Assembly (NCBI GenBank): GCA_039638295.1
Contig: JBDIWJ010000018.1
Coordinates: 1 to 28,490, forward strand
Source: Candidatus Phoenicimicrobium oleiphilum
GTDB taxonomy: Bacteria; Atribacterota; Phoenicimicrobiia; Phoenicimicrobiales; Phoenicimicrobiaceae
Reading direction: 5' to 3'
DNA length: 28,490 bases
The notes under the pieces were generated by a model that saw nothing but the letters and a program-made list of their open reading frames with translations, did not search any database and was not told where the DNA came from. Every line of letters begins with the position of its first letter. Positions within the stretch are counted from its first letter, which is position 1. Below are positions 16,897 through 20,335 of this stretch, one piece after another. The translations under genes were made by a program, and so were the position numbers.

Positions 16897-17346
16897 TTAA
16901 AACGGAATATCATCTTCTGATACTGAAGTATCTTCATTTATTCCTTCTTCAGGAATATTCTCCTCACCTTCAGCTGAATATTCTTCTGGTGCGATACCCG
17001 TATCTTTTATTAAATCTAAAAATTGAACAGTCCTGGCATTAATTTCATAAGAAACCCTTTTATTTCCATCTTTATCTTGCCAATTATTAGACCTCAATTC
17101 ACCATTTATGGCTACTCTTCTTCCTTTCTTTAAAAACTGTGAACAATTTTCTGCCTGTTTGCCCCAGGTTACCACATTTATAAAGAGAGTATCTTCTACA
17201 TTGTTTCCTTCTTGATTTTTATAGGTCCTATTTATAGCTATACCAAATTTACATACACCTTTCCCGGAAGGGGTATATCTTAACTCCGGGTCTCTTGTCA
17301 ATCTGCCAATTCCAATAAAATTATTTAAGTCACCAAAAGTAGCCAT
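16897..17346 (-). CDS. ssb: Single-stranded DNA-binding protein
   Basis: GRLTRDPELRYTPSG and C-terminal DDIPF. Confidence 0.97.
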   Translation of the reverse strand: MATFGDLNNFIGIGRLTRDPELRYTPSGKGVCKFGIAINRTYKNQEGNNVEDTLFINVVTWGKQAENCSQFLKKGRRVAINGELRSNNWQDKDGNKRVSYEINARTVQFLDLIKDTGIAPEEYSAEGEENIPEEGINEDTSVSEDDIPF

Positions 17347-17404: not shown

Positions 17405-19900
17405 TCATTTTACCACAATATTTACCAGTTTCCTAGAAACAGTAATAACTTTTACAATCTTCTTGCCTTCAATCTTTTCTTTAATTTTAGGCAAGGCGAG
17501 TGCTTCATTTTTTATTCTTTCATCATCATAAGATGCTGGCACCAATATCCTTCCCCTTAACTTCCCATTTACCTGGATTACAATTAATTTTTCCTCTTCT
17601 TCTAATAATTTCACATCATATTTAGGCCAGGGTTGTAGATAGATGCTTTCTTTATGTCCCATCTCCTGCCACAGTTCTTCCGAAAGGTGAGGAGCAATTG
17701 GAGATAATAGTCTTACTACTGTTTCCAAAGCTTCCCTTAAAACCAAGATATCACCTTCTTCAGAATATTTCTCTCCCACCTCGAATTTATATATTTCATT
17801 AACTAATTCCATAATCGCACTAATGGCAGTATTAAAATGAAATCTCTCTTCAATATCTTCGGTGACTTTTTTTATAGTTTGATGCGTCTTTTGCGTTATT
17901 CTTCTTGCTTCATTGCTTATCTTTTCAAAAGAAATATCTTTTTTCTCTTTCGCATTTTTTAAACATTCTAAATTCTTATAAATTAACCGCCAAACTCGAT
18001 TTAAAAATCTCGATGCTCCTTCCATCCCCTTATCGGTCCATTCCATATCTGCTTCTGGGGGACCTGCAAATAACATCATTATTCTGGTAGCATCAACTCC
18101 ATATTTTGCAAGTATCTCGCCAGGAGTAACTACATTACCTTTTGACTTAGACATTGCTGCTCCATCTTTACAGACCATTCCCTGGGTGAAAAGTCTTTTA
18201 AAGGGTTCTTTAAAATTAACAAAACCCATATCATAGAGAGCTTTAGTAAAAAAACGCGAATACAGAAGGTGTAATATAGCGTGCTCTACTCCACCGATAT
18301 ACTGATCCACGGGCATCCAATATCTTAATTCTTCGGCATCAAAAGGAGCGGTATCAACTTGAGGAGAACAAAATCTAAAGTAATACCAGGAAGAACAAAC
18401 AAAAGTATCCATAGTATCTGTTTCTCTCCTGGACTTTTTACCACATTTAGGACAAATTGTATTAACAAAATCCTCACTACTGGCTAATGGTGACATACCT
18501 TTAGGTCTAAAATCAATATCTTCCGGAAGTACAACTGGTAAGTCATCTTCGGGTACAGGAACTATCCCACAATCAGGACAATAAATTATGGGAATAGGGG
18601 CTCCCCAATAACGCTGCCGAGAGATAAGCCAATCTCTTAATCTATAATTAACCTCTCTCTTCCCTATACCTTTTTCAACCAGATAATCTATTATCTTCTC
18701 TAACGCGTCAGTGCTGGATAAGCCATTGAATTGACCAGAATTAACCATAACCCCTTCTCCATCAAAAGCCACCTCTATCGAGTTAGGTAAAATTTCTTTG
18801 TCCTTTGGTTGAATAACTACCCTAATAGGAAGATTATATTTTTTTGCAAATTCAAAATCCCTCTGATCATGTGCTGGAACTGCCATTACTGCACCAGTCC
18901 CATATTCCATTAATACATAATTGGCTACCCAAATAGGAATCTCTTCATTATTTATGGGGTTTATTACATATTTACCTGTGAAACGTCCTCTTTTCTCTAA
19001 GGTAGTTGATATCCTTTCTATTGCACTCTCTTTACTTACCTCTTTTATAAAAATTTGAACTTCACCTTTATATGGAGAGTCTTTTATTATCTCTTCTACC
19101 AAAGGGTGTTCAGGGGATAATAGAAAATAAGTTGCCCCATATAGAGTATCAGGTCGAGTAGTAAAAACTGGAATAGTCTTATTGCTTCCTTTTATAGGAA
19201 ATTCAATCCTTGCACCTTCACTTCTTCCAATCCAATTCTCTTGCATAGTCAATACTTTTTCAGGCCATTCTTCTAATAATTCCATATCATCAAGTAATCT
19301 CTGGGCATATTCTGTAATTTTAAAAAACCATTGAGACAACTCTTTTTTAACAACTTCAGAATCACACCTCCAGCATTTTCCGTCTATCACTTGTTCATTA
19401 GCTAACACTACATTACAAGAAGGGCACCAATTTACTACTGCTTTTTTCTTATAAGCTAATCCCTTTTTATATAATTGTAAAAACATCCACTGAGTCCACT
19501 TATAGTAATTCGGATTACAGGTAGCTATTTCTCTATCCCAATCATAACTAATGCTCATATTAATAAGAGTATTCTTCATTTTTTGAATATTTTTTTTAGT
19601 CCAGATTGAAGGATGAATATTATTTTTTATAGCAGCGTTCTCCGCCGGTAAGCCAAAAGCATCCCAACCCATAGGGTGTAAAACATTATATCCTTGATAA
19701 TGTTTGTATCTAGCTACTACATCACCGATAACATAATTCTTCACATGTCCCATATGGGGTTCTCCGGAAGGATAAGGAAACATTTCTAAAACATAATATT
19801 TTGGTTTTTTAAAATCGACATAAGATTTAAAAAAATTATTTTTTGTCCAATACTCTTGCCATTTTTTTTCAACTTCAATAAAACTATATCTCTCTTCCAT
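17405..19900 (-). CDS. leuS: Leucine--tRNA ligase
   Basis: MFPYPSG-HMGH, FTTRPDT editing domain, MSKSKGN. Confidence 0.98.
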
Positions 19901-19923: not shown

Positions 19924-20285
19924 AAAAATCTCGTCTCCAGCAATTATCTTAAATTACAAGGGACGAGATTTTTCCCGTGGTACCACCCTTTTTTGGTAGA
20001 CATTTTTATATATTATAAACTGGTGGAGCTGGCGGGAATCGAACCCGCGACCTCCTCCACGCCAAGGAGGCGCGCTCCCGACTGCGCTACAGCCCCATAT
20101 TATATTATCTACTCTTGTTAAACAATTAACGCTTGCTAACGTTGTAAACTACTTTAAAAACTATTTTTATTGATTTAATATTTCGCTTACAAAACTTGAA
20201 GGTGAGTTTGAAGGCTTTTTATCAGTTTTCACCAAAATACTGATTCTCTTTTAAATATTTACCTTTTACTCCTTCGCTTAGTTTT
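19924..20285 (-). promoter_or_regulatory. T-box riboswitch (Leu) upstream of leuS, containing an embedded tRNA
   Basis: Stem I with GAAGG/CCTTC, AGTA, AGAGA, GGTGAAA; CUC specifier 20204-20206; Stem II with AGTA; GCGTTA motif; GGGTGGTACCACG 19976-19988; terminator 19924-19973. Confidence 0.92.
20021..20096 (-). tRNA. tRNA-Ala(GGC), inside the leuS T-box leader
   Basis: GGGGCTGTAGCGCAGTCGGGAGCGCGCCTCC-TTGGCGT-GGAGGAGGTCGCGGGTTCGATTCCCGCCAGCTCCACCA; 76 nt, G3:U70, A73, encoded CCA. Confidence 0.96.
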
Positions 20286-20306
20286 TCCATTATTTAATTC
20301 TTTTTA

Positions 20307-20335
20307 AGTATAATTGAAAAAAAAATAAAAGTCAA
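20307..20335 (-). promoter_or_regulatory. Sigma70/A promoter of the T-box/tRNA-Ala/leuS/ssb unit
   Basis: TTGACT-17 bp-TATACT just upstream of Stem I. Confidence 0.8.

Follow-up and report, generated by a model that had tools for sequence, protein, structure and literature searches.

The stretch of Candidatus Phoenicimicrobium oleiphilum DNA analyzed here (28,490 nucleotides, referred to in its entirety as the window) carries, ahead of leuS, a T-box leader with a complete gene for tRNA-Ala(GGC) lodged inside it. In T-box riboswitches, an uncharged cognate tRNA binds the specifier and the UGGU sequence and stabilizes the T-box antiterminator. The locus thus raises the question of whether a leader built in this way can still sense tRNA-Leu, whether its transcript is at the same time a tRNA precursor, and whether the one function bears on the other.

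Organization of the leuS Leader

Read along the minus strand, a promoter-like site is followed by Stem I with a CUC specifier, Stem II, Stem IIA/B, the 5' strand of Stem III, tRNA-Ala(GGC), the 3' strand of Stem III, the antiterminator, the terminator, and leuS. The coordinates assigned to this leader in an earlier note on the window were all found to be correct when checked on the minus strand. The features, with the evidence for each, are as follows.

20307..20335, minus strand: sigma-70-type promoter, TTGACT-17-TATACT, 10/12 consensus matches; transcription probably starts near 20300
20194..20282, minus strand: T-box Stem I with AG bulge, distal loop and specifier loop (Rfam RF00230 alignment; fold)
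20204..20206, minus strand: specifier codon CUC, leucine (sequence; Rfam alignment)
20143..20191, minus strand: Stem II (Rfam alignment)
20126..20142, minus strand: Stem IIA/B region with CGUUA motif (Rfam alignment)
20113..20119, minus strand: purine string 5' of Stem III, an imperfect RRRxG (sequence; motif as given in the accessible text of PMC7583486)
20106..20112, minus strand: Stem III 5' strand, GUAGAUA (GTAGATA in the DNA) (Rfam alignment, covariation, folding)
20097..20105, minus strand: tRNA 5' leader, 9 nt, AU-rich, U at -1 (sequence); RNase P predicted to cut at 20097/20096
20021..20096, minus strand: tRNA-Ala(GGC), 76 nt, with G3:U70, A73 and encoded CCA (ARAGORN; Rfam tRNA model, 67.9 bits)
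20003..20020, minus strand: tRNA 3' trailer, 18 nt, AU-rich (sequence); putative target of RNase E/G or RNase Y
19996..20002, minus strand: Stem III 3' strand, UGUCUAC (TGTCTAC in the DNA) (Rfam alignment, covariation, folding)
19958..19990, minus strand: antiterminator with 7-nt T-box bulge, UGGU at 19985-19982 (Rfam alignment; fold)
19976..19988, minus strand: T-box sequence (sequence)
19924..19972, minus strand: intrinsic terminator hairpin, U5 tract at 19928-19924 (fold, -24.7 kcal/mol)
17405..19900, minus strand: leuS, leucine--tRNA ligase, the regulated gene (TIGR00396)
16897..17346, minus strand: ssb, directly 3' of leuS and probably co-transcribed with it

The T-box Sensor and Its Expression Platform

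The leader has the sequence properties of a class I T-box: the Rfam model RF00230 matches positions 19956-20288 of the minus strand over its full length (model positions 1-219 of 219) with 103.4 bits against a gathering score of 93, and a CUC specifier stands before leuS. The cognate tRNA-Leu(GAG) gene is located on contig C9 of the same genome, and CUC was found in 70 of the 74 homologous leaders in which the specifier was sought. The Rfam alignment places a 103-nt insert, tRNA included, in the loop of Stem III. Among 12 T-box matches in the genome, that of the leuS leader is the only one to overlap a tRNA call, and the thrS and pheS T-boxes of the window possess plain Stem III hairpins, as the earlier note had described.

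Folding of the leuS leader gives the antiterminator -10.4 kcal/mol, compared with -24.7 kcal/mol for the overlapping terminator, and the terminator was the more stable of the two in 66/74 nested loci. The leuS-leader terminator contains internal structure, has a U-tract of only 5 nt, and was passed over by a simple scan for terminators, which gave 0 calls. The purine motif associated with Stem III is defined in the accessible text of PMC7583486 as 5'-RRRxG-Stem III-AA-3'. In the leuS leader the string preceding Stem III is ACAAG, or AAGAG in the register of the Rfam alignment, which is shifted by one base; a strict RRRxG is present in 42/70 homologues, and AA follows Stem III in 50/70.

Several related leaders depart from the full-length form. 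In three loci of one genus (L015, L019, and L020), Stem I is much shorter and is without the AG bulge and distal loop, while CUC, Stem II, Stem III, and the antiterminator are retained; from their sequences these leaders could possibly be short-Stem-I transcriptional T-boxes. In a further group of nested leaders (L280-L286) the specifier lies approximately 38 nt from the tRNA, with Stem II and Stem IIA/B largely absent.

The Nested tRNA-Ala(GGC) Gene

In the assembly, which has 1.65 Mb and is 91% complete, ARAGORN identified one tmRNA and 42 tRNA genes, among which the nested gene was the sole tRNA-Ala. The genome also lacks calls for Ala(UGC) and Ile tRNAs, so "only copy" of Ala(GGC) is to be read as only detected copy; within that bound the gene is single, a point that the earlier note had asked about. 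The nested gene is likewise the sole full-length tRNA-Ala(GGC) copy in 38/41 related genomes (the other three being without one) and single-copy in 5/5 distant genomes. Across related genomes the tRNA remains 92-100% identical while its flanks diverge, and all 43 distinct nested tRNA sequences have G3:U70, A73, CCA, and all seven acceptor pairs, with compensatory changes present. From these comparisons it looks to be a functional gene under purifying selection. A crude ORF count puts GCC at 20% and GCU at 43% of alanine codons. With respect to processing enzymes, type A RNase P RNA, RNase Y, and RNase E/G are encoded in the genome; RNase J gave no match over the cut-off in the 91%-complete assembly. 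In assembled contigs from four RNA runs, cover resembled that of DNA and extended over intergenic DNA, and the peak of cover at the tRNA arose from tRNA-like sequence of other organisms.

That the T-box might sense its own nested tRNA in cis was considered and rejected: the specifier is for leucine and the tRNA for alanine, and the modeled probability of ACCA-UGGU pairing was 0.0. The nested tRNA would be a product of the leader and not its sensed ligand.

In two loci a second tRNA-Ala, with anticodon CGC, is located just 5' of the nested T-box (L178:873-945 and L215:1362-1437); the first regulated gene in L178 is ilvE.

Closure of Stem III Around the tRNA

It had been claimed in the earlier note that GTAGATA (20112-20106) pairs with TGTCTAC (20002-19996), giving 7 bp including one G-U, and that the tRNA consequently sits in the loop of Stem III. 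Both claims are borne out, the second by the Rfam insert and by covariation of the stem among homologues. Across the nested loci, 209 of 259 cells were paired, in 37 distinct stems, compared with 174.6 +/- 4.7 when partners were permuted; none of 2000 permutations reached 209, and sliding the strands left only 90/222, 123/258, and 87/221 cells paired (39-48%). The swaps include UA/CG at pair 3, AU/GC at pair 5, and UA/GC at pair 7. Within the order to which the window belongs, pairing was 68/84 against 62.1 permuted, a value as high being attained in 19/2000 permutations. The strands were anchored by sequence only, since a MAFFT alignment misplaced the 5' strand, and no pairs were counted on that alignment. 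The anchors were chosen after the sequences had been seen, 7/77 loci without an anchor were dropped, and mis-anchored rows were kept; the loci include kin and are not independent, and relatedness inflates tests of this type. Duplexes formed from each locus's own flanks averaged -9.6 kcal/mol over 77 loci, compared with -5.8 for shuffled and -6.7 for non-cognate flanks, and were better than the 5th percentile of shuffles in only 43/77.

Folding of the leuS leader gives a less robust picture for the individual stem. Its bare Stem III duplex is worth approximately -7.8 kcal/mol, and closure around the cloverleaf gains only 2.5 kcal/mol. In unconstrained folds, Stem III formed with p=0.5 at the antiterminator stage and 0.08 once the terminator was included, and the 3' strand of the stem was modeled to compete by pairing with the T-box sequence at p=0.42-0.75. 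Such folds recovered the acceptor stem of the tRNA (0.97-0.99) and failed to recover the anticodon and T arms. When the cloverleaf was forced, Stem III had p=0.31, which rose to 0.94 when UGGU was additionally blocked in imitation of bound tRNA-Leu. Modeling therefore depicts Stem III as marginal in the genome itself, while its closure across homologues is supported by covariation.

A Probable Single Transcript, and Relatives Without the Sensor

A promoter with at least 10/12 consensus matches was found 5' of Stem I in 67/70 homologous leaders. Between the specifier and the tRNA no site reached this threshold in any of the 70 leaders, the best being two 9/12 sites, and between the tRNA and the T-box no promoter was found at any threshold in 74 leaders. 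These counts, together with the sole-copy status of the gene in 38/41 genomes and the position of the tRNA right behind the promoter in relatives without a sensor, make it very probable from sequence that the leader is also a pre-tRNA-Ala, as the earlier note had proposed.

All five loci read from three sister families have the order promoter-tRNA-terminator-leuS with no T-box, and in 28/34 sister-family genomes (by pattern) a terminator starting CYCGYCC, which resembles the 3' half of a T-box antiterminator, follows straight after the tRNA. The same sensor-less reduction is seen in G002 and in a Desulforudis genome. Among 20 own-family leuS loci that were read, Stem I is shortened or deleted in five (L011, L014, L015, L019, and L020); in L011 most of the sensor has gone and the promoter, tRNA, and antiterminator are kept. 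Such losses may mean that the switch is decaying in the family or that some of these loci are assembly errors. In a LeuS tree of 145 rows, 67 nested and 7 tRNA-only rows all fell within one branch of 94 (support 96), the rows of the window's phylum formed one branch (97), and the tRNA-only state needs at least four changes; the tree has a midpoint root, omits 30 duplicate loci, and carries no clade test. These data fit an old origin of the layout followed by repeated loss of the sensor with retention of the tRNA.

In seven sensor-less loci (L261-L265, L016, and L066), leuS lies behind a strong-looking terminator and has no evident promoter of its own; the essential leuS gene of these genomes may depend on leakage through that terminator.

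Distribution of the Layout

A pattern of tRNA then T-box matched 44 of the 86 genomes of the window's phylum and 43 of the 51 other genomes of its order. Carriers are found in the two families of the order (24/29 and 19/22) and in 0/34 genomes of the other five families; one genome (G003) was missed by the pattern solely owing to a longer linker. With a single exception, a reversed control pattern gave no matches in the genomes of the phylum. Among the best 30 leuS loci of the order, the window's own included, tRNA-Ala(GGC) stands just 5' of leuS on the same strand in 30/30, and a T-box motif intervenes in 29.

Beyond the phylum, a Peptococcaceae genome led to Bacillota, where 40/301 genomes matched and inspection showed 36 of these to be tRNA-like; within the order of that genome, a pattern blind to the anticodon matched 37/101, and all 20 loci fetched from it had Ala(GGC) inside a T-box. 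In Actinomycetota 2/151 genomes matched, and 5/48 in one small class. Carriers number approximately 70 in Bacillota and four in Actinomycetota, giving a total of about 120 species-level genomes in three phyla, some of them recognized solely by the pattern. Wherever a locus was checked, the tRNA nested in it was Ala(GGC), including 22/22 fetched with the anticodon-blind pattern. The pattern found no match in five of five single genomes of other groups or in three genomes of the phylum of G090. In a wider LeuS scan of mostly distant loci, the layout was nested in at least four (4/80 among the matches listed); the same 80 listed matches included at least two with a tRNA directly 5' and no T-box, and at least one with the tRNA 1.3 kb away. 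A scan of metagenomes used too loose a pattern; 9/120 loci passed its filter, of which one (L210) proved on inspection to have no T-box, leaving eight. One of the five matches in the small class of Actinomycetota, on a contig (L332; G672:C133) whose leader and LeuS group with the window's own family, was left out of the phylum count and is probably bin contamination or a transfer.

The gene immediately downstream is leuS in 72 of 79 nested loci; of the other seven, two lie at contig ends, one is a false locus, and the rest have ilvE, an acyl-CoA ligase-like gene, or (in two cases) another gene. In a second set of 22 loci, leuS was first in seven, and in 13 the first gene best matched the PRK12583 acyl-CoA ligase family, these matches being truncated and below the family cut-off. 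The 13 loci with the PRK12583-like gene in place of leuS directly behind the nested Leu T-box are L310, L312-L317, and L324-L329. Retention of CUC in 70/74 leaders indicates that leader and tRNA travel together even where the first gene changes. In one locus (L279) a non-leuS insert follows the terminator and is possibly a mobile element.

How the Leader May Work

Taken together, the evidence makes it likely that this is a working class I leucine T-box whose leader is also pre-tRNA-Ala(GGC), with the tRNA made whether or not leuS is attenuated. Transcription would begin at one promoter 5' of Stem I, as its conserved position suggests, and proceed through sensor, tRNA, and antiterminator. At the tip of Stem III the tRNA would fold independently, and the base of the stem would still close and set the purines against the antiterminator; covariation argues for the pairing, and T-box biochemistry for the function. 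Uncharged tRNA-Leu(GAG) would be read in trans in the usual way, such that transcription stops at the terminator when leucine is plentiful and reads through into leuS-ssb during starvation. Because the tRNA is located upstream of the terminator, it would be produced in both states independently of attenuation. RNase P and a 3' endonuclease (RNase E/G or RNase Y) would be expected to free the tRNA, mostly after the decision, and read-through RNA, once processed, would give leuS mRNA a new 5' end some 100-120 nt before the start codon. The layout would be old and kept mainly since it holds a tRNA gene without another promoter or copy, the sensor having probably been lost repeatedly with the tRNA retained. 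A further idea in the earlier note, that cleavage yields a split riboswitch held together by Stem III, fared poorly, since the bare duplex is weak and a transcriptional T-box has no output after polymerase has passed the terminator.

The alternative that survives best, although unlikely, is that processing of the nested tRNA forms an active part of the switch, making leuS dependent on processing capacity as well as on leucine. By one route, RNase P would cut the paused leader, opening the loop of Stem III and freeing its 3' strand for the T-box sequence, so that termination would be forced unless uncharged tRNA-Leu was already bound; by a second, later cuts would set the stability of leuS mRNA. 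A pause of 30-60 s at Stem III has been cited for B. subtilis glyQS in vitro (accessible text of PMC6197855), and a pause of the glyQS type could give RNase P time to act before the decision. Cleavage of T-box leaders is summarized as altering mRNA stability in B. subtilis thrS and S. aureus met (accessible text of PMC7913692). Also consistent with coupling are the modeled pairing of the Stem III 3' strand with the T-box sequence, the U at -1 of the tRNA in 72/77 loci, the short and unpaired linkers flanking the tRNA, and the nesting of Ala(GGC) alone even under the anticodon-blind pattern. However, a single old origin accounts for the fixed identity of the tRNA without coupling, the linkers differ greatly in length (5' linker, 0-17 nt; 3' linker, 0-19 nt; fitted as duplexes over 77 loci), most T-boxes, including 11/12 in the same genome, work without an insert, and the sensor has been lost while the tRNA was kept. 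The specific proposal that maturation of the pre-tRNA within the decision pause serves as a timer or second input to leuS-ssb is doubtful to the same degree.

Rather less probable is a vestigial T-box in this genome or family, which would leave a tRNA-Ala gene with a leaky terminator and constitutive leuS, as in the sister lineages. The weak Stem III and imperfect purine string would suit such a state, as would the Stem I deletions in 5/20 own-family loci, the full loss in G002, and the absence of the sensor pattern from the 34 genomes of the other five families. Against this, the leader scores 103 bits over the whole Rfam model with CUC, Stem II motifs, and T-box bulge intact, 43/51 other genomes of the order retain the pattern, and Stem III pairing within the order exceeds permutation. 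It is very improbable that an internal promoter serves the tRNA and that the nesting is an overlap of two transcription units. Two TATAAT hexamers (20104-20099 and 20017-20012) and the weak 9/12 sites found between specifier and tRNA in 2/70 leaders could be taken to suggest it, but RNA begun from the first hexamer would have its 5' end within the tRNA, neither hexamer is accompanied by a -35 match or was called by the promoter scan, none of the 70 leaders has an internal 10/12 site, and in the deleted leaders the upstream promoter still precedes the tRNA. A misassembly, or a tRNA inserted recently by chance, can practically be dismissed: the assembly is fragmented (83 contigs) and no RNA-run contig compared spans the whole stretch, but contigs from another run match both sides with 0 differences, the contig of a relative bridges 19952-20287, and the layout recurs in independent genomes of this phylum and two others, so that the nesting is real and not the misassembly that the earlier note had named as a possible refutation.

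Relation to Known Systems

In comparison with class I T-boxes (RF00230) of the B. subtilis tyrS, thrS, and glyQS type, the leuS leader shares Stem I with its specifier, Stems II, IIA/B, and III, an antiterminator with a UGGN bulge, a competing terminator, and a place before the cognate synthetase gene; it differs in having, as its Stem III loop, the whole of a non-cognate tRNA gene that appears to be under purifying selection. Stem III is described as variable, with no tRNA gene named in it, in the accessible text of PMC7583486 and PMC7778990. Large extra RNA within a working T-box has precedents in S. aureus, where the glyS T-box carries a lineage-specific insertion, stem Sa (PMC9177973), and the met leader has 150 nt between IIA/B and Stem III (PMC7913692); as described in the accessible text of these sources, the inserts are stem-loops of the leader itself at other positions, whereas that of the leuS leader is a separate gene with its own product.

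Cleavage of the B. subtilis thrS leader, the RNase III cut of the S. aureus met leader, and an RNase P cut of the pbuE adenine riboswitch are all summarized in the accessible text of PMC7913692. In such systems a nuclease parts the leader from the mRNA and can alter mRNA stability, and the same is predicted for the leuS leader. The cut sites predicted in the leuS leader differ in belonging to a true pre-tRNA, from which a functional tRNA would be released. The layout of its sensor-less relatives is shared with another known arrangement. Mixed tRNA-mRNA operons in which a terminator follows the tRNA, such as E. coli thrU-tufB and metY-nusA, use one promoter to yield abundant tRNA and less of the downstream mRNA. 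The leuS leader differs from these in that the tRNA is inside a regulatory fold and read-through is predicted to be controlled by tRNA-Leu.

Inserts in T-boxes and leader cleavage are described in the accessible text of PMC7583486, PMC7778990, PMC7913692, PMC6197855, PMC9177973, and PMC2494555, where a nested tRNA gene is not. No description of such a gene was found in the literature that was accessible; older comparative papers, supplements, and subscription journals may mention one. The locus thus appears to be a real, conserved, and apparently undescribed variant of the class I T-box, one that would sense tRNA-Leu in the ordinary manner and, unusually, would double as a tRNA precursor. While riboswitch leaders are usually seen as disposable after termination, the attenuated leuS leader would be the apparent sole source of a tRNA. 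Only 4/20 related loci score above the Rfam gathering threshold, compared with 19/20 that have a T-box motif 3' of the tRNA, and pipelines that resolve overlaps between tRNAs and riboswitches are thus predicted to under-report T-boxes of this kind. As a natural experiment, the variant could show what the T-box discriminator will accept at the tip of Stem III and whether RNase P acts on a nascent transcript before the termination decision, and the series of deletions suggests how a regulated operon can decay to a simple tRNA-terminator-mRNA unit. Were the processing-gated alternative true, it would represent a natural tRNA-in-riboswitch device, combining sensor, substrate, and product, in at least three phyla.

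Additional Observations in the Genome

Two T-box antiterminator motifs lie 137 nt apart at G000:C11:141-480, indicating a tandem or partial tandem T-box, and a selenocysteine tRNA is encoded at G000:C7:41632-41730. Elsewhere in the window (16631-15679, minus strand), the thrS T-box (15956-15698) starts 21 nt downstream of a cluster of six tRNA genes, and a strong promoter (11/12, with extended -10) precedes the cluster. No minus-strand terminator was called between the cluster and the thrS T-box, such that the T-box terminator seems to be the end of the tRNA operon. From its sequence, the thrS locus seems to constitute a second tRNA-before-T-box-terminator unit, and the same arrangement was found in two of five relatives of the order (E<=0.001).
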